Below, piece after piece: positions 2,746-59,995 of a stretch of 64,000 nucleotides of DNA; positions within the stretch are counted from its first letter, which is position 1; each line of letters starts with the position of its first letter. This DNA is from Antedon mediterranea (lineage: Eukaryota; Animalia; Echinodermata): assembly GCF_964355755.1 (NCBI RefSeq), contig NC_092679.1, positions 10,275,432 through 10,339,431 on the forward strand. Reading direction: 5' to 3'. The translations under genes were made by a program, and so were the position numbers. The notes under the pieces are model-generated. The model saw only the letters and a program-made list of their open reading frames with translations, did no database searches and was not told where the DNA came from.

Positions 2746-5700
2746 ATGGTAAGCAATTTATTGGCTTAGCCTCCTAGCTAGCTTTTAGGTAGGAGGCTAG
2801 CTTACTACTACTACTAGCTAGGCCTAGCCTAGACCTACGGCCTACACTGGCTACTACTAGGATAGATATATTAGGCCAAGTTGAACGGTAGCGGGACGGT
2901 TCGGCGCTGAGAAAAATGGCTTCGATTGAACTGTGGCCATTTTAGAATCAGGAAAATTGCCAGAAATCAATGTAGGCCTAGGCTACCTACCTATGTTTTA
3001 TTTTTATTTATACCTGCAGAGAATGGTTTTATAAAGAACCAGCTGTACATATATTATGACTGAGTTCGTACATATAACATTTTATTTTTTTTTAAACAAT
3101 TTACAGTTTTAAAAATCATAAAAATTAAACCATATTTCAATTTCACTATGTAAGACATATCTAAAATTGTCTATCAAGAGCAAATATTGCTATCTCACTG
3201 TATTAAAAAATAGAAAATGATTTGTTTTTGTTTTAGACTTGAATGTATTGATTAGTGACCAAGATAATTTTCTTTGATAGGCCCTATTAAAATGAATAAT
3301 AATAGGGATAACGATGCAAAATTAAAAGTTCTTATTTTTCAACCAATTTAAACACTATATGTTAGTATTTTGTTTCAATATTCCAATAAAGAAAGAATTA
3401 CGAAAATCTGACTTGTAGTTTTCGAAATATAAGGTCTAAAACATCTCCGAAAATGATCGTTTTTGGCCACGAACGTTGTAAACAAATTGCGCCCTCAGTC
3501 GACAATTGTATGAACCACACCAATTTTCGCTAAAATAATTACAAATAATTACGTTTTATAGTAATTTATTTTATATATCAACATTGGAAATATCAATAAA
3601 ATATGTTATTAAATGTTTACAAAATATATAAAATTGTTTATTTAACGGAATTCGTACAAATTCATTGCTCTAAATTTGTGTAGTAACATCAGTACAGACA
3701 GACCATGTGACTTCGCGGTACACGCGAGAGAAAACATTCCGCTGTGGGTGATTCGCGTCCACCAATCAAATAGCCAGGATCCAAAAGCATTCAACCGTGA
3801 GCTCTGCCGATCGCGGGAAATCTCAGCTTTGATTGGCTTACGATGACATCATATCACAAAATGGTGGTTTTGTAGTTGAGCCTCACGTAATTTTCACAAT
3901 TTTATTTTAAAAATGAAATAAATGGACCTTCTTTATGGTATGTGTGATTTTTCTCTAAAAGATTTAAATAATAAAGGCTTCATATAGAGAAAAAACCGTT
4001 TTTTTGGCACTTATAATAAATATTTCTCAGAGAAAAAAGCACATGGCATGTAGAACTATATTATCTTGGCGTAGGAAGACAAACAAATCCCAGGTCATGA
4101 GAGGCTCAACTACAAAAACAAGGTTGAATAGGGTTAGGTCACTGGACCGTTCGAAGGTTTTTGAGTAAACAATCTACCGCGTATGGTCGTACGCGCTAGA
4201 CAGTACGATATTTTAACCACATTTTGTACATGTTTGGTTGAATGTAATGACGATAAAAAATAGTTGATCTTATGGAATGATATGTAAATAAATAAATACT
4301 CAAAAGAATTATGTTTACAGTTCAATTATTTTCAGAATAATATTACATAAAAATGTGTTTACCAATGGACAGATAATCGCGTCAATGACATAGCGCGCAT
4401 GGTAACGTACGCGTAGTTGAATCGTGGCAATAACAATGGAGTCAACTCTCGGTAACCCTAATAATAATAATGAAATATTAATTTATCCTCTATACGCCAG
4501 GTGAAAACATTTCTTGCCTCTCAAAACCAGTGGCGTATCCAGGATTTTGAAGTTGGCGGGGCCGGGAATTGCCAATTTGCCGACAAAATTGGTGTCATTA
4601 TCTGTACATACACGACGTCTCTGATCAATATATGTTCTAGGATTACATAGTCATATTGTCTTATATGGGATAACGATGCAAAATTAAAACCAAACCAACA
4701 TTATCTATTAGTATGTTGTATTCATATTACAATAAAGAAAGAATTAGGAAAATCTGACTTGTAGTTTTCGAAATATAGGGTCTAAAACATCGCCGAAAAT
4801 GATCGTTTTTAGCCACGAAAGAAGTAAAACAATTTGCGGCCTCAGTCGACAATTCTATTAACTACGCCATTTTTGGTTAAAATAATTACATATAATTACG
4901 TTTTTTAGTAATTTATTTTATATATCACCATTGGAAATATCAATAAAACATGTTATTAAATGCTTTTAAAATATATAAAGTTGTTTACTTAACGGAATTC
5001 GGACAAATTCATTGCTCTAACTTTGTGTAGTAACGATCAAAGAGATTCATGGTACACGCGCGAGAGAAAACATTCCGCTGCGGGTGATTCGCATCCACCA
5101 ATCAAATCAGCTAGAATCCTAATCATTCAACCGTGAGCAATGCCAATCGCGAGAAAGCTCAGCTTTGATTGGCTTACGATGACATCATATCACAAAATGG
5201 TGGTTTTGTAGTTGAGCCTCACGGAATATTCTGTTCCAAAAATGAAATACCGGTACATGGATATTTTTTATGGTATATGTGCTTTTTCTTTAAAAAATTT
5301 GAATAATAAAGGCCTCATATCGAGAAAAAAAAACGGGTTTTTGGCACTTATAATAAATATATCTTAGACAAAAAAGCACATGGCATGTGGAAATATATAA
5401 TCTCTTAGCGTAGGAAGACATACAAATCTCAGGTCATGAGAGGCTCAACTGCATGCAAAAACAAGGTTTTAGGGTAAGGTCAAAGACTTTTGAGTAAACA
5501 ATCTACCGCGTACGGCCGTACGTACGTGCTACACATTTTTAACGTGTTTCGTTAGATGTAATGAAAATAAAAAATAGTTGGATCTGAAGGGATCAATGAT
5601 GATATGATATGTAAATAAACAAACACTCAAAAGAATTATGTTTACAGTTCAATTATTGTCAGAATAAATAGTTTATTTTTTTCCCCGGCACCTTTGTTTG

Positions 5701-12796: not shown

Positions 12797-14689
12797 TAGT
12801 GGTGTTAATTAATTCAATGGATTGATGTTTTCTACTTTTATTACACACAGTAAAGACACTGTATGGATTTATTTTTAGTTTTAAATATTGTTTTTGTAAA
12901 TGTTTTTCGCCTTCATGTCCAAGAGTTTAATATTAAACAAACTAGTATTTTGTATCATGGCTCCATTTTTAAGTTTGTATAAGTGTTTCAATATACTGCT
13001 TTAATATTTGTGCTGTGGTAAGCAGAAAACGTTGAGCTTTCTGTCTAGTATCTGTACTCGTGTTCCTAGCCGTTTTAAGGCCAATTTACACAGACGAGTG
13101 GTAACAGTAAGTGGAAAACAAAAATATAGAATCTTTGTTAAATGTTATTTCTTATGACCATTTACACTGAATGTGGAGCGGATGTGCAGTTGAGCAGAAA
13201 TCCACTCAATAGAAACGGATTATATTTTGTCAAAATATTGCACAGTCATTTTCACGCTGCTGCTCTAGCCCGCTACGTCCCATTAGGACTACTCAATCAG
13301 AAGCTAAAGCAAGCAGCAGTTATAGTTCTAAGGACAGACAGTTTTGTGAAAATGGAAACTCCACTATGATTTATTGATTCCAGCTGCTACAGTAGACCCA
13401 AAAAACGTCTGGGAAAGAGTCTATTAGGACATGTCATGCTAAAATTACAAATCCCTAAGCATTTCTGGTATATTCACTGTCAGATATTCATTGAATTATT
13501 ATCGAAACAGGCCATTAAAGTTTGTGTTTGTAATAGGATACTTCACAATTGAAATATCTAGGGTGATGAAGTGACCCCCAGATTTGACCTTAGCAATAAA
13601 ATTAACTAAAGTGACAGAAATTGAGTATTCACTTCTGTAACAAAAAAATAATATTTATTCACATATAAAAAAAGAAAAGAAACCCAAAAACCATTGTCTG
13701 ACAGACAATTTCAGTATTTGTTGCTTTAAATTACATTTTTTTCAGGTAAAATAACTATTATGTGACAATAAAATGACACATTCAAAACCAGTTGAAATAA
13801 AAAATATTTTTCAATAAGCGAGCAGCGTTTTTTGTAAGAAATATTTCTTGTTTATTCTGGCCAATCAACCTGATTATTGGGACGTCATCTATCAACAATT
13901 TGTTTGTGTGCGCCTGTTAAGTCCTAGATTTCAATGGTATCTAACCAGTTTTCAACCCAGTTTCCTGACTCCCAGTTTGCTGATAAAGAAAAATAAATGC
14001 ACTATGTAATTGTAAATTATAATCACAATTAGCAAATAAGACATATTCCCATTCATAGGATTTGTTTCAAGGCCACCAATTTTACTGAGACATCAACATT
14101 TTAAAGTCAAAAAATTATCCGGCAGTTGTTTTTAAATCCTTACGCCAAATTTATTCAGCTGAATCGTAATTTTCTTTTGAAAGGAAAGGCATAGTACTAC
14201 TTAATATAGTTCAGTAGCCCCTGTCCAGGTGCGGACGCAGGGTGTTACCCCAGTGAGGGCCTTAAAAATGGTTTTTTTTCTGCCACTAAATTAATATTTA
14301 GATCCCATTTCATTTTATTACATAGCCTATGTAAATACGTAAACGTGATTGGTTGAAACTGCATCACATGACTACCGCTTCGAGGATCGTAAATCGTATA
14401 TATGCTCGAGTACGATGATATTGACCCGAGTCATTTTCGTGTCCCTGTCATTAAACATATAATTTGTGTGTAATTTTCGTGTGGCGTTTGGCGATGACTT
14501 GACTTGAACTCACGATGATTTGCCACACCATCACAAGAAGACAACGTTTCATCCGTTGCGCCACGTAACTTGCTTGAAGAAATTAATCAACTAAACCATA
14601 TAGTCCGGGAGCCCATGAAGATTTGTTTAGCATTGCGAGTACAAAAGGTCTGAGGCATAGAATATGTCAAGTAGGGTCCAGGGACCATC

Positions 14690-15310
14690 AAACGGCCGTT
14701 CTTAAGTTCCCGCCCCTGTACCAACTCTAGGGAGGGGCGCTCAAAATACCCCAACATTTGATTTAATTAGCATAATCAAGTACATAAATGAAACCAATGT
14801 TAAAATGTTTATTTTTAGGGTCTAATTGAAGATCCGTCATTCTTAAGTGGGAGCTCCTGTACCTAGTCCACTTAAAAAAGCCACTAATTAGCGCTAATTA
14901 GCATGGTCGAGTACATCGATGAAACCTTGGGCAATACAATAAGTACATTTACCCAACTGAGAAAACGTAATTCTTAAGTGCCAAATCCTGTACCATGACC
15001 CCTTAAGGAAGGGTCAAAGGTCAATATATGTCTCACCTAGACTTAATTAACATAATGAGTACACCTGTAAAACCAATGCAAAAATGTTTATTTTTAGAGT
15101 CTAATTGAAGATCCGTCATTCTTAAGTGTCAACTCCTGTACCTAGTCCACTTAAGAAAGCCATTAATTAGCGCTAATTAACATTTTAATTAGCACAATCG
15201 AGTACATCAATAGAACCTTCGGCAATACAATAAGTACGTTTGCCCAACCAAGAAAACGTAATTCTTAAGTGCCAAATCCTGTACCATGACCCCTTAAGAA
15301 AGGGTCAAAA
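14690..15310. repeat. Internally duplicated repeat (~290-bp units), probable DNA-transposon subterminal region; inverted relative at 32030-32372
   Basis: Repeated blocks ttcttaagtgccaaatcctgtaccatgaccccttaag and gtctaattgaagatccgtcattcttaagtg. Confidence 0.65.
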
Positions 15311-17130: not shown

Positions 17131-17727
17131 TGTTCTCACGGTCTAGCCATTTTGCCACCCGGCAAATTGCCACCAGGCCCTTTGCCGCCCAGCATTTACT
17201 TGGCCTTTAGCCACCCAGTCCTTTGCTACCCGGCCGCATGTGGCATATTGCCACCTTAGGCCTTTTGACACATGGGCCCTGCCATCCGGCCAATTGTCAC
17301 TACCGGCCATTTGACACCAGGCCTGTTGCCACTCGGCCATTTTCCACCCAGTCTGTGGCCATCGCTTAGTTTCCAACTGGCCTGTTGCCACCCGGCCTGC
17401 TCCAAACTGGTGTGCTTGCTACAAAGGCGCGTAGCGTCTGGGCGAATATATAATAGGTTTATACTTTTCCCCGCTCTCAGTACAATTATTTATGACTGGG
17501 GGAGCCAATTCATTAAACCATCTGAGATCCATCTGTGACATGACCAATGATGGTATACAAGATCGTGGGATTTAAATAAAATCTAATATCACGATATAGA
17601 GATAATTAGGCCCTATATTCTCATGCAGTGGATATGCTACTGATCAATGTTAATTAAACAGTTGTTTTTACGAATTGTTTTGTGACAGTCAATTGAAGAT
17701 TCTGTATATCATAGGCTTTTGTCCTCA

Positions 17728-18045
17728 TGAGTGAGTGGCCGAGCGGTTAAGACAGTGGAACCGTAATTCCGTAGCCATAACATCGGCAGGGGTTCGAGGC
17801 TCACTCACTCCATGGTTCTGGTGGTAGAACGAGTCTTCTCGGATAAGGACTATAAACCGTAGGTCCAGTGTACACATCTAGCTCGTGTGCACTTTAAAGA
17901 ACCTAGTACATCTTTCGAGACGAGTAGGGGTTACCCCGGTGTATTAGTACATCCCAGCCACTGATCACCAACTGGGCCCTCTGGGAGACCAGTCTTTGAC
18001 TGAAGAGGTTACCCAGTATAAATATATATTTCAATCAATTCAATC
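17728..18045 (+). mobile_element. tRNA-derived SINE with Deu/Nin-like central domain
   Basis: A box TGGCCGAGCGG and B box GGTTCGAGGC, then GGATAAGGACTATAAACCGTAGGTCC...TTAAAGAACC...GAGTAGGGGTTACCCCGGTG; (CAAT)n tail; truncated relative at 59830-59995. Confidence 0.75.
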
Positions 18046-18662
18046 AAAAAATCAGTAACGAAATTGTATACATTTATTTGGATAAAATACAAATTATGTG
18101 GTAAACAAGGTGGTCTACTTTATTTTTTGACACATGTGAGCCCGATAAACAAATACAAGAAAACAAGTATTGGTTATTAAATAATTTAAAGTCATCGTTG
18201 CAGCATGCACATAAAAGGAAAACATAAAAAAGGGACATTGGGATGCTCTGAAAAGGCCAAATTACATGTCTTAAAATCGTAATTGAAAACAAAATAGAGA
18301 GGGAGTGGAGGGAGGGAAGTGAAAATTATTTTACTTAGCCAAAAACTGGCGTGTTAATCTGTTGACAGCGTGAGGTGAGGAGGATGAGATGCTCACGCTG
18401 TCAAAAGATGATTGCGAGGGCGCCCCGCAATCACGTGATTTTGACACATGTGAGCCCGATAAACAAATACAAGGAAACAAGTATTGGTTGTAAAGTTATT
18501 TAATATGAATGGCAAGTCATCGTTGCAGCATGCACATAAAAGGAAAACATAAAAAAGGAACATTGGGATGCTCTGAAAGGGCCAACACAGTTGGCAACGA
18601 AGGGCCAACGAAGCAGCCCAAATTAAGTGCAGGTAGAACCGATGACAAGCCATTCAGATGAT

Positions 18663-19107
18663 GGTGCAACATATGTTGACACCCAGAACGTATAGAAATT
18701 ATCTACATAGTCTACCTGGAGCAACATGTGTTGACTCCAGTACCCGGTTGACCATTAGCGTCTGATAGGTGGAACAACCAAATATTGACATCGAAAAACG
18801 TATAGAAACACCTACATTAGTCTACCTGGAGCAACATGTGTTGACTCCAGTACATATTTAAACATTTTAATTAGGTAGGCAGTGTAACCAAATGTTGACA
18901 CCGAAAAACGTATAGAAACAATCTCCATTAGTCTGCCTGGGGCAACATGTGTTGACTCCAGTACGCGTTTGAGAATTGAGTTTAATAAACGGTGCAACCA
19001 TGTTGGCACCGAAAACATATAAATAACTTATTAGTCTACCTGGAGCAACGTGTTGACTCCGATTGAACATATGATTATAATTGGCGGTGCAACCTATGCT
19101 GTCACCG
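18663..19107. repeat. ~110-bp period tandem array of alternating bulged hairpins
   Basis: CTGGAGCAACATGTGTTGACTCCAG-type hairpins at 18716, 18826, 18937, 19040; GGTGCAAC-N-GTTGACACC-type at 18663, 18771, 18881, 18991, 19086. Confidence 0.9.
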
Positions 19108-19315
19108 AAAGAAAACAAAAATGAAATAAGTAAAAACGATATACAGAAAAAATAATTATCAAACTTTGTTTAAGCTTGACGCTTAATACCCAGTCATGCT
19201 TAGGAAATATGCCAACCAGCCAGCACCCATGTTTACAACGCTGTATTTGACAAAGTTATGTAGTTCGACCATCGTCCAAAAGTCATAATGTCTTGGTGAG
19301 AGTGTCCAAGTGATT

Positions 19316-20068
19316 TTATGAAGGTGTTAACTGTGTATGTTCCAGACTAGCATGGCGAGCTAATTGTTTAAGCGACAAGGAAAACATTTTCCTATTTACT
19401 GGTGTTCCATTTTCAAGCAGGAAGAACGGGCCTGCCTTCAGTGGTCGCATCTTGACGTAGCGTTGCAATGCTCTCACTGGGCATATATTGGGCTTCCGGA
19501 TTTTTTGGTGCAAGACGAAAGGAGGTGAGGAACGCTTAGAGTGTTTGAAAGATTTGAAGTTTATTTGCACTTTAGTGGCATGTACTGTGATATCAGTTAG
19601 CATTAGTGTGTGTTCTGCGGCCTTGTAGACTACTGCTTCACTGGCTCTGAGGCATGCGAAGTAACATATTATGAACAAGGCTCTGTAGAGGATGAATTCG
19701 TATTTGGATTTCATGCTACCTCGCATATGTCCAATTAGCGTTACAAGAATGTCGGAGGTGACCGGCGGTCTGATCGGTTTGGATGGAGAGTTCGTTTTTT
19801 GTTTCGCTACTCCTCTGCATAAAATGCTGACTGCTGGATTTGCGGTAGGGTCTTCCATAAATGATACCCTGTGCACGAATGACACTGCGCTAAGGTAGTT
19901 TCGAATCGTGGAAATCGCCAGTGCATTTTTAGTCAGCTTACTTACATAGAGAACAATTGTCTGTGGAGTCGCTGGTAGCGGAAGGGTTAGTGATTTCCTG
20001 AATTGGTTAAAATGGTGCCATTTGCTTTTATAGTTACTAGCGGTTCCTTTGCTTAATGAGTTCCACAT
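19316..20068 (-). pseudogene. Tyrosine recombinase (SAM-like N-domain + phage-integrase catalytic domain) of the DIRS/Ngaro element, 3' end disrupted
   Basis: STIRNYLSAVSFVH, FACLRASE (catalytic R), CPVRAL, GPFF. The HxxR box is lost; GRW and FVKY continue in other frames at ~19240-19310. Confidence 0.88.
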
Positions 20069-21560
20069 TAGCTCTCGTGTGAGGATCTTGAGTTGTTTAG
20101 TGGTTCGAAGTAGATTGGTTGTAAGTGCTTTGGTATCTTTAGCGGTGTGCGGTTCCTACTGTGCTCCTCTAGCATGGCCTCCGTTTCCTGAAAATGAGAA
20201 AGAGCGTCACATATCCTGTTTTGCTTACCAGGGATGTGCCTGGCTGTAAACTGAATGTTGTTTAGTAGTAACAAAAGAACGATAGCGCGAACCACTCTCA
20301 TGACCTTTTCGTTTGATGACGATTTTTTGTTAAGCACATATACATCAGCTAGGTTATCACAGTGGAAAACTACATGGGTGTTGGCTAGCTGTTTTGCAAA
20401 AATCGAATACATGACATAGATGGGCTAAATTTCGAGAACCATGATGTCGAACATTTTCCAAGATTCCGGCCAGCGGCCTTGAATCCAGAACTTTTGGAAG
20501 GTCGCACCAAGTGCGGTTTTTGAGGCATCAGAGGAGAAATGTAAACGCTGCGAGTCAAATTGTTATGGGGGTGAAAAATGGTAACGCCATTGTGTTTGCT
20601 AAGAAAGTCGGCCCAAATTTAGAGATCCTCCTTTGCTGAGTCAGAAAGGTGAATAGTTGAAAAGGGGTTAGTTAGACCGGCCGTTAGGGCATAAAGCCTT
20701 CTTAGAAACGCTAGTCCAGAGGGTATAACGCAGGTGGCAAATTGTAGCTTTTCAAAGAGATTGGAGGGCTCTCAATGTAGTTGAGTGAAGTGTGTGAGGA
20801 AGTTTTGAACTTCAAAGGGAGTAACGTAATTTTATTATCTCAGATGGAAGCCTGTCTTACATTTTCTGTAAATCAAGTTCAATACCTAGGAAAGAAATGG
20901 TGGTGGTGGGTGAAATTGTTTTGTGCGGTGCTAGAGGTATGCCAACGCGGTCAGCAAGCGCCTTGGATATCTTCAAGAAGTTTGCACACAGTTGGTGTGT
21001 GTCTTCAATGACGAGGATGTCGTCTAATATTTTCACGTTATTGGGCTGTTGTAACTTTTTTGTAAGGATATATTTCACTCCGTCAGAAAACTTATTGAAT
21101 ATTTGACACGAAGATCCGCCGCCTTGGGGAAGCGTTTTATCGTAGTAATACTGGCCTAACCACGTGAAACCTGTGAGGTGATATTGAGTGGGATGTAAAT
21201 GTATTAGTCTGTATGCGTCACTGGTGTCCGTCTTAGCCACGAATGCCGGGTGATTGTGTATGTCAATTATGCCTATTGCGTTGGCAATTGTTTCGTAATG
21301 AACTGTTATGCAAAACCCAGGGATGTTGTGATTGACAGCGTTTGAGTCGTAGGGATAGGAGAGGTTGTGGAGGATACGAAATTTTTCAGGTACGGAATTT
21401 CCGGAAGGTTGTTGATGATAGCTTGGGAGTTATTTGCTGTAAAAGCAGCCCCATGTAAGGTAGAAGCCATGAGCGAAACATTGGGTAAGCGTAAGCGTGG
21501 TGTTTGTAACCAGATAGAAGTGCGCTTATTCTAGTGGGAATTATGGGATCTCGAGCACTG
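20068..21560 (-). pseudogene. RT-RNase H (pol) of the DIRS/Ngaro element, fragmented
   Basis: KFRILHNLSYP, AKTDTSDAYRL, YYYDKTLPQG, KILDD, FLGIELD (RT); SSDAS, FHCDN, RHIPGKQNRICDALSH (RNase H); in-frame stops and frameshifts. Confidence 0.9.
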
Positions 21561-22152
21561 AAAAACGAGTGGCGATACTGACAGTTTGTCTGGACACATC
21601 TATTGAATCTCTTATGGTAGGAGATACAGAAGCCGAGTGGACGCTCCACGGTTGGATGGGTTCGAGGTTTATGGTTAGCTTGTTGCGTCTATTTTATGGA
21701 GGAGGTCGGTTCGAACCGATGACCAAGAGCAAAGTGTGTAGGCCTACTCCCTAGCCATTCGAAATTATCAGTCGTAAAAGTACCATTAATTTGGATGACT
21801 GCGCATGAGGTATTTAATATACTTAAAATAATTTAAGATGTCCTGTGTGTATTTACTTAAATAAAATTGTGGCAAAGTCGTGAAAGGCCGTGTGCCAGTT
21901 GTGTGCCAGTTGTGTTCGTTTAAGATGCGGCATTTGGGCTTAGGGCCTGTTTCTGCTGCAACTGCTCAAAATACGGTATAAAAATACGGTATAAAATACG
22001 GTATTTTTTATACCGTATTTTTTAGTACCCCGTTTCTGCTAACAATACTTCTTGGGTGGTCGTGTTAAATTTCATCTTTTTTACCCAAATTGCCATTCAT
22101 TTATTTGATCGATAATTAAAAGTCGCAATAAAGGAAGTTTTACGTCTCACTT

Positions 22153-22449
22153 TCAACAGCCTAGCCCTAGTGATAGAGATGTTGTGAGAGCACAGAAAAC
22201 ATCGTAATGGGGACAATTAATTCGTTCCCTCCCCGAGTTATTGTATTTTGCAATGTTGTACTGCTTTCGCAGGCTCTTCAGCTTTGAGTTTACTTGCTTT
22301 GGAGACAAGTCTATTCCATACTCCTGCTTTATTTTTTTAGAAATGTCTTTATAAATGTGGTTGTCCCTTTTATTACCTTTTAGTTGGCCAGACATTTTAG
22401 CTTCCCCACACAATTTATTTAGTAAAACTGTGACGTCTTCGCTCCACAT
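22153..22449 (-). pseudogene. Myb/SANT-like (trihelix) DNA-binding domain, Harbinger accessory-protein type
   Basis: WSEDVTVLL...IYKDISKKI...SPKQVNSKLKSLRKQY...CPHYD. Confidence 0.7.
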
Positions 22450-23031
22450 TTTCGCCGAATATATATATACACGTGTGTAAAACAGCTGACAGCGACAGAA
22501 AATAAAAATACGAATGTTGACCTTTTGTCATGTAACAAAAAAATACGGTATTTTTTATTGGCAGCAGAAACGGGTACAAAAAATACGGTATAAATTTGTA
22601 AATACCGTATTTTATCCACAAATTTTGTGGGGAAAATACGGTATACAAAATACGGTATATTTTTTATGAGCGCAGTTTCTGCTGCCAAAAATATACCGTA
22701 TATATACGGTATTCAAAAAATACCGTATAATATACGGTATTTAGTTGGCAGCAGAAACAGGGCCTTAGACACAAGTTCAAAGGTACCAGTGAACGTTAGC
22801 GTCAAAGCTTCCGCTGCGCTGTTGAAGTCGAGCAGATTGTGCAGCTCGATAAATTTGTGGATAAAATACGGTATTTACAAATTTATACCGTATTTTTTGT
22901 ACCCGTTTCTGCTGCCAATAAAAAATACCGTATTTTTTGTTTACATGACAAAAGGTCAACATTCGTATTTTTATTTTCTGTCGCTGTTGTCAGCTGCTTT
23001 ACACACGTGTATAAAGATATATTCGGCGAAA

Positions 23032-23329
23032 ATGTGGAGCGAAGACGTCACAGTTTTACTAAATAAATGTGTGTGGGGAAGCTAAAATGTCTGGCCAACT
23101 AAAAGGTAATAAAAGGGACAACCACATTTATAAAGACATTTCTAAAAAAATAAAGCAGGAGTATGGAATAAACTGGTCTCCAAAGCAAGTAAACTCAAAG
23201 CTGAAGAGCCTGCGAAAGCAGTACAACATTGCAAAATACAATAACTCGGGGAGGGAACGAATTAATTGTCCCCATTACGATGTTTTCTGTGCTCTCACAA
23301 CATCTCTATCACTAGGGCTAGGCTGTTGA
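23032..23329 (+). pseudogene. Inverted second copy of the Myb/SANT-like ORF (frameshifted near its 5' end)
   Basis: Reverse complement of 22153-22449 with few substitutions. Confidence 0.7.
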
Positions 23330-23365
23330 AAGTGAGACGTAAAACTTCTTTATTGCGACTTTTAA

Positions 23366-23991
23366 AGACCCCTTCCCTGCAATTTTGGACGTTTTTTGGA
23401 AAATAATACATATATATCACTTTAAAAACATTAAACCATGTCATTCCTTGTCTTAAATGTACGTTTTATGGTAAATTATGATAAAAAGTGAGAAACAATG
23501 CACTACCTAAGTAGCTCGCGGCGATCGACCTCTCGTGGACGGTCTCAGGCCTAGCCTAGCTAGGCTTAGTTTTGTAGGCCTAGCTGGTAAACATCGGTAA
23601 CGTACGAACATCGTACGCTAGCTATATACCTAGCCTGACGTTGTATAGTTGCTGCATTAATTGTCTTTCTATTTTTGCCAGACTCCGTTGATACAAATTG
23701 GGGAAAACCCGGTATTTTCGCTGAAAAGTTAGGAGTCTTCCATTTGTTTTGGCTTCACGATCGATCGAAAAGTGGGCGAATTACAGGTGAAAAACAACAA
23801 TATCAATCCGCGCGCAATGCATTTTGGGATTTATAGCGGGCCGCTATAATTATTAAAATCGATTTATTTTTCACATTTTTAACCGTTTAAAGACGAAAAA
23901 AGTTATCGCAATAGGACCATATAGTATTATTTTTACATTAAATATAGTTTGTGATCTTAAATTAGATCTAAAAAACGTAGGGAATGGGGCT
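23366..23991. mobile_element. TTAA-target non-autonomous DNA transposon (Kolobok-like AG..CT ends)
   Basis: TTAA|AGACCCCTTCCCT ... AGGGAATGGGGCT|TTAA. The mirrored arm at ~22115 shows the empty single-TTAA site. Confidence 0.85.
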
Positions 23992-24810
23992 TTAATTATC
24001 GATCAAATAAATGAATGGCAATTTGGGTAAAAAAAGATGAAATTTAACACGACCACCCAAGAAGTATTGTTAGCAGAAACGGGGTACTAAAAAATACGGT
24101 ATAAAAAATATCGTATTTTATACCGTATTTTTATACCGTATTTTAAGCAGTTGCAGCAGAAACAGGCCCTTAGTTGGCCGGACATTTTAGCTTCCCCATC
24201 CCCTCCTTCCCCACCCCCTCCTTCCCCATCCTCTTCTTCCCCATCCCCTCCCCCTCCTTCCCCACACAGATTTATATAGTAAATACTGTGACGTCTTCGC
24301 TCCACATTTTCGCCGAATATCTATACACGTGTGTAAAACAGCTGACAGCGACAGAAAATAAAAACACGATGTTGACCTCATGTCACCTCAAAAGTAAAAA
24401 AAAAATACGGTATTTTTTATTGGCAGCAGAAAAGGGTACAAAAAATACGGTATAAATTTGTAAATACCGTATTTTATCCACAAATTTTGTGGGGAAAATA
24501 CGGTATACAAAATACGGTAAATTAGGACACAACCAGACAACATAGTTACAGTAAAGTACGAAAAATCGAACAAAATGGGGGTAAGATAAGGTGTTAGATA
24601 AATTCCAGTCAAAGTATATTGTGTGAGTACACACAGCCTATAAGTGTATGAGGATAAAATGAACTGGTAAATGTAAAAGTGAAAATTATTTTACTTAGCC
24701 AAAAACTGGCGTGGTAATCTGTTGACAGCGTGAGGTGAAGAGGATGAGATGCTACCGAGATGCTCACGCTGTCAAAAGATGATTGCGAGGGCGCCCCGCA
24801 ATCACGTGAT

Positions 24811-31690: not shown

Positions 31691-32575
31691 CTTTGTGGAA
31701 AAACACCCGATATGTATGAACTATTTACTTTAACACTTATCGGAAAACTTTAAACATCTGGGTCTATACCATAGAAAAGCAATTTAGTAATTAAAATGAT
31801 TTACACATTTTAATCTTGCGTTTATTTTAATTTAATTGCAGGCCTAATATAAGGGCAAATAAAACTCTCAGATCAGGAGGCAAAAGGCCGGGTGGAAAAA
31901 GGCCTGGTGGCAAAAGGCCGGGTGCCAAAAACCAGAGTGGCAAAATGGACTGGGTGGAAATGGGCCGTTGTCGAAATACCGGGCGAAAGGCTGGCAAAAG
32001 GCCAGGTGGCAACCGGCCGGAACCTATGTACTACTCACTATGCTAATTAAAGTTCAGGTGGGACATACACTGACCTATGACCCTTTCTTAAGGGGTCATG
32101 GTACAGGATTTGGCACTTTACGTTTTCTCAGTTGGTTAAACTTACTTATTGTACTTTCCAAGGTTTCATCGATGTACGTGATCATGCTACTTTTAATGAC
32201 CACTAATTAATTACTTTCTTAAGCAGATTGGATACAGGGGAGTTGATACTTAAGAATGATAGATCTTCAATTAAACTCTAAAAATAAACATTTTAGCATT
32301 GGTTTTACATGTGTACTCATTATTTTAATTAAGTCCGGGTGGGACTTAATTAAGGGGTCATGGTACAGGATTTGTATATGAAAAGTATATTATTATATGT
32401 CAACCAGAGCTATGCTCACTGAACCGTAAGAATGAGTTAGTCTCTACTTGTAGACATAGGAAAAAATTCTTACTAAATTGCAGATCCAAATAGTTTATCT
32501 AAAACAATAGGCTATTGTATACGACTTCCTGATGACTCACTTCTATTAAGTACTGTGTCACTTATGTTTTATATT

Positions 32576-59829: not shown

Positions 59830-59995
59830 TAGCGAGTGAGTGGCCAAGCGGTTAAGATGATGGAACTGTAATAGTGGTGGTAGAATTAGTCTTCTCAGAT
59901 AAGAACTATAAACCGTATGTCCAGTGTACACATCTGGCTCATGTGCACTTTAAAGAGCCTAGTACATCTTTCAAGATGAATAGGGGGTTACCACT
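59830..59995 (+). mobile_element. Truncated Deu/Nin-like SINE
   Basis: Aligns to 17728-17935 with a deletion. Confidence 0.7.

Follow-up and report, generated by a model that had tools for sequence, protein, structure and literature searches.

We analysed a 64-kb window (64,000 nt, GC content 35%) of the Antedon mediterranea genome that carries, on the minus strand, a Ngaro-type retrotransposon with an array of bulged hairpins in its 3′ non-coding tail. Judging from its sequence, this host of the array is a decayed (dead) copy and otherwise ordinary. The element comprises the following features:

24677–24810, minus strand: split direct repeat A1, the left end of the element (blastn against A2)
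21939–24520, strand not assigned: nested insertions with long inverted repeats, interrupting the 5′ part of the element
21569–21628, minus strand: CCCH-type zinc-finger motif, part of a gag remnant
20068–21429, minus strand: reverse transcriptase and RNase H, split into several broken frames
19233–20188, minus strand: tyrosine recombinase gene, 94% identical to an A. mediterranea recombinase, its nearest named protein
18663–19107, minus strand: nine homologous bulged-hairpin units in the non-coding tail at the 3′ end, with a basic unit of 55 nt and a two-unit period of 110 nt
18439–18585, minus strand: split direct repeat B1, which begins at a TTGG motif
18317–18438, minus strand: split direct repeat A2 (blastn against A1)
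18125–18260, minus strand: split direct repeat B2, which forms the right end of the element and lies 56 nt beyond A2

Ngaro elements are defined by split direct repeats in the order A1-[ORFs]-B1 A2 B2, by overlapping gag, RT/RNase H and recombinase genes and by their methyltransferase-free status (PMC8547959, PMC9210276, PMC6681497, PMC3783388), the latter separating them from DIRS-like and PAT-like elements (PMC8547959, PMC9210276, PMC3783388). The copy in the window carries the split repeats, with blastn identities of 90% between A1 and A2 and 88% between B1 and B2; its B1/A2 junction agrees with joined element ends, and the crossover is A/T-rich. The tblastn order of the genes is gag, RT/RNase H and overlapping tyrosine recombinase. 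Gag is represented by the CCCH remnant only, the spacing of which recurs 5′ of the RT in six related loci, and the recombinase frame is disrupted in the last third of the gene, near 19480 and at 19310–19330. Pfam, run on the ORFs of the window and on P0001 and P0151, returned RVT_1, RVT_3 (weak) and Phage_integrase. A DNA methyltransferase is absent: none was listed by Pfam on P0151, and there is no room for one because RNase H overlaps the recombinase ORF. In repeat layout, in gene order with overlap and in being methyltransferase-free, the element conforms to the Ngaro superfamily (order DIRS). It differs from described Ngaro elements by the ~450-nt hairpin array of its tail, the 56-nt gap between A2 and B2 and the absence of the hydrolase ORF.

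Several further repeats are found in the window. The A repeat (18317–18438) holds a 12-bp hairpin and has, in sequencing runs X2 and X7, a contig depth several-fold above that of the element body together with many unlike flanks, which suggests solo or non-autonomous derivatives. The nested foldback elements (21939–24173) consist of 151-nt terminal inverted repeats flanking a 1.2-kb near-perfect palindrome (22131–23351) with a short ORF remnant. Two copies of a tRNA-derived SINE look-alike, noticed by eye, lie at 17725–17990 and 59875–59992, where ARAGORN detected no tRNA gene. Repeats of a 279/140-nt family, which contain TTCTTAAG cores as well as small bulged palindromes, are present at 14684–15309 and 32050–32348, in inverted orientation 17 kb apart.

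The array is located between the recombinase and B1, as the first-pass annotation of this DNA had placed it. The tail of the element is 650 nt long; the array begins ~125 nt past the recombinase stop, and 78 nt separate its end from B1. On the sense strand, each unit is laid out as outer stem, bulged U, CAAC, loop, GUUG and outer stem; since the element is encoded on the minus strand, the bulge appears in its RNA as a U in the 5′ arm. The odd-numbered units among H1–H9 are of the GGTG type and the even-numbered ones of the CTGGAG type:

18663–18683, minus strand: H1, GGTG type, perfect, U bulge on the sense strand, fold z −2.3
18716–18740, minus strand: H2, CTGGAG type, perfect, fold z −3.5
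18768–18793, minus strand: H3, degenerate, with a broken outer stem, looking like a hybrid of both types, z +0.7
18826–18850, minus strand: H4, CTGGAG type, perfect, identical to H2
18880–18903, minus strand: H5, GGTG type, with non-canonical pairs, z −1.9
18937–18961, minus strand: H6, CTGGAG type, with one mispair, z −1.1
18990–19011, minus strand: H7, GGTG type, perfect stems, C bulge on the sense strand (U in other copies in the runs)
19040–19061, minus strand: H8, CTGGAG type, loop shorter by two bases
19085–19107, minus strand: H9, GGTG type, with a sense-strand G·U pair and an A bulge, z −3.1, matched by a short-tailed relative

Tandem Repeats Finder reports positions 18663–19060 with a period of 110, 3.7 copies and 76% matches, and this value, together with the odd/even succession of GGTG and CTGGAG units, bears out the period of ~110 bp with two alternating forms that had first been noticed. 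The bulge-to-bulge spacing along the array is 55, 54, 56, 54, 57, 51, 50 and 46 nt. The first-pass annotation had described nine hairpins of the same architecture, each with one extrahelical base. The nine units are indeed homologous, but the perfect 4+1+4 form is restricted to H1, H2, H4 and H7: H3 does not fold, H8 has lost two loop bases and H5, H6 and H9 carry mispairs. Likewise, the single bulge is retained as a feature of the unit, but its letter on the plus strand is A in 7/9 units, G in H7 and T in H9. A hidden ORF in the array region was rejected, the longest stop-to-stop frame having only 100 codons, and so was a CRISPR-like array, given the mutual homology of the linkers.

The GGTG and CTGGAG hairpins had been regarded as two different structures. 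Their outer stems, however, are separated by only two compensatory pairs, U-A/A-U and C-G/U-A, and they thus represent one unit. The probability that four changes form two complementary pairs by chance is 0.001–0.012. Over the 72 cells of the unit alignment, 90% are paired, a level reached in 8/500 shuffles, with slid controls at 25–51%. The array could have been built in two steps: one hairpin would have been duplicated to a 55-nt pair, the members of which diverged by compensatory changes, and the resulting 110-nt pair would then have been amplified about four times.

Comparison of the four 110-nt periods bears out the earlier statement that the linker following the CTGGAG hairpin is much more diverged than the hairpin, with 54% identity vs 94% (Fisher p 8e-5) and 19/29 variable columns vs 3/25. 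The other linker, by contrast, shows 77% identity vs 78% for the GGTG hairpin (p = 1). Because this second linker is as well kept as its hairpin, conservation is not confined to paired bases. RNAalifold, applied to the four 110-nt units, recovered both hairpins; it assigned no fold to the conserved linker and revealed no two-sided change within one type.

As minus-strand RNA, the array region folds better than 100/100 shuffles (z −3.5), and as DNA it also beats 100/100 shuffles on both the minus (z −3.1) and the plus strand (z −2.7). Taken singly, perfect hairpins of this shape are not uncommon, with 42 matches in the 64 kb, four of them within the array; it is the clustering that exceeds chance, since two or more hairpins with a 5′ U bulge occur in only 1/182 tiles of 700 nt. 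An Rfam search of the window yielded three chance matches at E about 1, none of them inside the array. Double-stranded palindromic binding sites were also considered and rejected, as pair swaps offset by a bulge would make sense only in a folded strand.

Which strand would fold bears on a reading that we consider decidedly unlikely, namely that the hairpins form on single-stranded cDNA, with an A bulge on the 3′ arm, and constitute an uncut accessory site for the recombinase or RT that protects or routes the cDNA. The cDNA of DIRS-1 is single-stranded and mostly linear, according to the available text of PMC7192593, and the hairpins of the array do fold as DNA on the cDNA strand. These DNA folds are weaker than the RNA folds, with −2 to −8 kcal/mol vs −7 to −15 kcal/mol for the folding units, a gap that is expected of any hairpin. 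The wobble pairs of 23 hairpins, counted on the sense strand, comprise 11 G·U vs 5 A·C (8 vs 3 for the relatives alone), a tally compatible with a cDNA fold and leaning, not significantly (p 0.21), toward the sense strand. In addition, the outer stems of two distant relatives described below, L027 and L003, carry several sense-strand G·U pairs. We lean toward RNA rather than cDNA as the folded strand.

Other copies of the element were surveyed in the contig tables of six runs, which are unphased and in which some contigs are probably one unit off register. The array is covered over 30/30 bins in runs X2, X7 and X9, from two organisms; coverage in X12 is limited to 4/30 bins (flank only), and X10 and X14 cover it in part. 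The nature of X9 as RNA is a guess, and its coverage of the array is not counted as evidence of expression. Joints in these contigs indicate that the number of units varies, from one to more than nine. A low-depth relative in X2 and X7 skips 444–449 nt (joint 18635–19080); this short-tailed relative matches only H9 and a 20–30 nt patch beside B1, with unlike flanks. Another relative, in X7, steps back by 193 nt (joint 19049 to 18857) and so has extra units. The 29 variant sites between copies are distributed as 5/154 in stems, 2/35 in loops, 18/247 in linkers and 4/9 in bulges. Stems do not vary significantly less than linkers (p 0.12). A majority repair of H3, H5 or H6 was not found in the runs, nor did they list a variant restoring the outer stem of H3.

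Among the copies, no site class varies more than the bulged base (18844, 18898, 19006 and 19056), and the change is always from U to C on the sense strand. Four of the nine sites vary, perhaps three of them independently (p 0.001–0.015). This variability may reflect a free choice of pyrimidine, a mutation hot spot or conversion between units.

Such copies give some weight to the view that a single hairpin, or none, matters and that the nine-fold array is a neutral minisatellite from a slippage-prone tail, as in Retand/Tat elements. Both a one-unit and an extra-unit relative exist, one unit is dead and three are mispaired, the GGTG hairpin and its linker are equally diverged, and stems and linkers do not differ significantly among the copies. 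Family-specific 3′ tandem repeats are moreover common in Retand elements, their function being unknown in the available text of PMC11963269. Against this stands the contrast within one 110-nt unit between the well-kept CTGGAG hairpin and its diverged linker. Self-correction of a palindrome would also be expected to remove the bulge, not to retain it. A further argument comes from the tails of four distant relatives (L002, L003, L010 and L027), where the hairpin is repeated between unrelated linkers and the outer stems covary; plain tandem duplication is disfavoured since it does not give covarying stems between unrelated linkers. Taken together, we judge a neutral origin unlikely.

These distant relatives were retrieved from metagenomes with a profile built from 40 of the 150 listed recombinases, which gave 28 loci with recombinase identities of 26–55%. 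Relatives were not found in the viral contig or genome contig collections searched, and a DNA pattern scan of viral contigs gave three matches, none with a hairpin array. Tails were tested in 23/28 loci, leaving out L004, L005, L007, L009 and L012 (tails <60 nt); L001, with a 92-nt tail, was also excluded from the repeated-stem test, and the tail start of L027 was set by hand on account of its broken frame. At least three copies of one hairpin stem are present in 4/22 tails (L002, L010, L023 and L027; p 0.005 each) and in 0/16 coding controls. Among these, L023 is suspect, its tail being a long inverted repeat that is possibly an insertion.

A shape-only descriptor taken from the window was then applied to the relatives' tails under three settings. 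On the sense strand of the 23 tails it detected eight hairpins with a 5′ bulge vs 0.7 in shuffles. The U-bulged subset amounts to six hairpins in 3/23 tails (one in L001, three in L002 and two in L003) vs 0.2 in shuffles; 0/300 shuffles were as high under all three settings, and the U-bulged shape is absent from 13,745 nt of recombinase coding sequence. The mirror-image shape gave 0, 4 and 1 U-bulged matches under the three settings, and without the GC filter it is also enriched (four matches, 1/300 shuffles as high).

The shape common to the window and these relatives is a single sense-strand U bulge on the 5′ arm, 4–5 bp below a small loop, in hairpins with unrelated letters. The inner stems differ between families by pair swaps (CAAC/GUUG, CCAG/CUGG and CAAGG/CCUUG), and the outer stems of the shape-bearing families covary between copies. 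These cross-family hairpins were anchored on the bulge by script, as MAFFT did not align them. L001 and L002 share 67% identity over 1077 nt of coding DNA, yet are identical at 22/23 positions across the hairpin; since they form one lineage, the strict support comes from two lineages besides that of the window. The earlier suggestion that the fold appears selected gains credit from the compensatory pairs between the two unit types combined with this recurrence of the same shape, in other letters, in distant families.

The strict U-bulge shape occurs in only 1/13 tails of at least 500 nt (L003), with L010 and L027 added under relaxed settings. As most long tails are without it, Ngaro elements do not generally require the U-bulge shape. 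When the nine units were made into a covariance model, it matched only its training units and had no match at the sequence level in any of the 28 loci. The shape-bearing families lie scattered across a quick tree of the recombinases of unnamed relatives, with four changes (103/500 shuffles as low); the tree was built without L022–L028 (matches <150 aa) and P0017 onward. Convergence is possible because the covariance model has no outside matches and the shape-bearing families do not cluster. The shape could be either an old feature often lost or remodelled, or the product of repeated convergence on a common protein-binding shape.

Other motifs were observed in the tails. L010 has GAG-NNN-CTC hairpins in four copies behind the recombinase and in three behind a downstream ORF (1700–1970 and 3470–3750), which by eye shows SGNH-like motifs. 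L027 carries, at 270–540, hairpins with an A·G mismatch and freely covarying outer stems, and L016 has four motifs of 19–21 nt at 2012–2168.

A second element of the tails is a branched fold that contains a TTG(G/C)C motif and is conserved in relatives, 15–110 nt past the recombinase stop. It was located at:

L003, 4308–4354
L006, 4964–5010
L008, 2251–2298
L017, 1764–1808
L018, 543–587
L022, 596–642
and, more weakly, in L015, L019 and L011

The motif, which was chosen by eye, is present as TTG[GC]C within the first 130 nt in 18/23 tails vs 26/88 background windows (shuffle mean 5.4). In the branched fold, 85% of the cells are paired, with two two-sided changes, and its covariance model found no counterpart in the window. 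In all three loci that have two B copies, the start of the B repeat lies at or within a TTGG/TTTGCC motif; the positions of this B-start motif are 18580–18585 in the window, 4866 in L011, 1785 in L017 and 2641 in L019. An end-overlap of the L019 contig likewise begins at the TTGG/TTTGCC motif. If the B boundary marks the start of reverse transcription, one may speculate that the TTGG motif, the complement of CCA, points to a primer site. In DIRS-1, the sole element tested, the primer was not determined, as far as the available text of PMC7192593 goes.

With moderate confidence, and on the strength of a predicted fold, we interpret the array as a set of multivalent putative protein-docking hairpins on the RNA of the element, whose partner would most plausibly be Gag. 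The hairpins would fold on the element RNA in its non-coding tail, each with an outer stem of 4–6 bp that is free in sequence, a single pyrimidine bulging from the 5′ arm, a C-G pair lying above this bulge and, at the apex, an inner stem of 4–5 bp closed by a 3–5 nt loop. A protein encoded by the element, with Gag as the first candidate, would dock on them, and this docking would mark the RNA for packaging and reverse transcription. An element-encoded partner is suggested by the CCCH finger that the elements carry and by loops and inner stems that are specific to each family. CCCH-type fingers bind RNA. One hairpin would suffice and extra copies would add avidity; such redundancy would explain both the decay of single units and the variable unit number. 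A role of the Gag zinc finger in RNA packaging has been stated for other YR elements (PMC6681497). A more specific version, which is possible although we hold it to be doubtful, is that Ngaro RNA is tagged by a bulged-pyrimidine shape code that is read by the element's own Gag CCCH finger, family-specific and multiplied to win packaging.

The reader of the folded RNA might instead be a host protein of the Egalitarian kind acting in nuclear export, germ-line transport or stability. Retroviral export elements also lie in the 3′ tail, and a shape that is kept while its letters change fits shape-reading host proteins. Drosophila Egl, for instance, binds stem-loops that are bent by bulges and diverse in sequence, two of which it needs on each transcript (PMC13186709). 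Its signals, however, need 3′-strand bulges and span two helices (PMC13186709), unlike the array stems of 8–10 bp with their 5′-arm bulge, and families from one metagenome series have different tails. A host reader is rather unlikely in our opinion.

The first-pass annotation had also offered attC-like recombination sites as a reading of the array. The integron attC sites are 57–141 bp long, with R and L boxes around an unpaired central spacer, RYYYAAC/GTTRRRY cores and two or three extrahelical bases, the first and last of which are 6 bp apart (PMC5027507). The units share with them an imperfect palindrome, an extrahelical base, a tyrosine recombinase nearby and, in this family, AAC and GTT triplets, and their number varies, as might be expected if the element's recombinase cut them and thereby shuffled or captured the linkers. 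They nevertheless depart from the definition in length, triplet position, 7-mer cores, bulge count and spacer (PMC5027507, in its available text): at 21–26 nt and 8–10 bp, they are under half the minimal length and lack R/L boxes and spacer; their GAGCAAC/GTGCAAC and GTTGACT/GTTGACA stretches adjoin the loop, leaving AAC/GTT apical; and each has one bulge. The triplets are not kept in the relatives, AAC/GTT being absent from L001–L003, which have the same shape. The linkers, 54–77% alike, are homologous to each other and are not cassettes, and the crossover junctions of the element are at its A/B termini. NCBIfam gave for the recombinase only weak matches to XerD, a generic tyrosine recombinase and the archaeal XerA, far below cut-offs, and listed no integron-integrase family beyond that weak XerA match. 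With size, core position, bulge number, spacer and cassettes all failing, the attC-like reading is very improbable and has been abandoned in favour of putative protein-docking hairpins.

The array bears on RNA recognition and the start of reverse transcription in recombinase retrotransposons. If the shape-code version were true, split-direct-repeat recombinase retrotransposons would have their first RNA-selection signal, and MS2-like tag–protein pairs would be available as a natural library. The 25-nt hairpin, with its natural compensatory variants, dead units and family-specific versions, offers ready binding substrates and controls. If the array were neutral, it would document how animal retrotransposon tails seed minisatellites.

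In the Ngaro literature searched, the available texts describe terminal repeats and ORFs only, with no tail hairpins or tandem repeats, and a search conducted without the Goodwin and Poulter originals, Repbase reports and supplements found no selected bulged-hairpin array in Ngaro tails. Among known systems, bulged stem-loops read by one protein are found in the MS2 and PP7 operators and in the iron-responsive element. The array resembles these and the Egl-BicD signals in its short stem, single bulge, small loop, outer stem of free sequence and several copies, and differs from known bulged stem-loop signals in matching no Rfam family. The Egl-BicD signals, which include the ILS of the I-factor, are longer and reliant on 3′-strand bulges (PMC13186709), unlike the array. 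With the repeats found between pol and the 3′ LTR of plant Retand/Tat/Ogre elements, the array shares a family-specific, length-variable nature and a position past the last ORF and ahead of the 3′ terminal repeat (PMC11963269). It differs from the Retand repeats, for which the available text of PMC11963269 mentions no hairpins or structure, in its predicted fold, its compensatory pairs and its recurrence across families. Tandem repeats behind the last ORF are thus known from LTR elements, and what is new here is one shape common to sequence-unrelated families.
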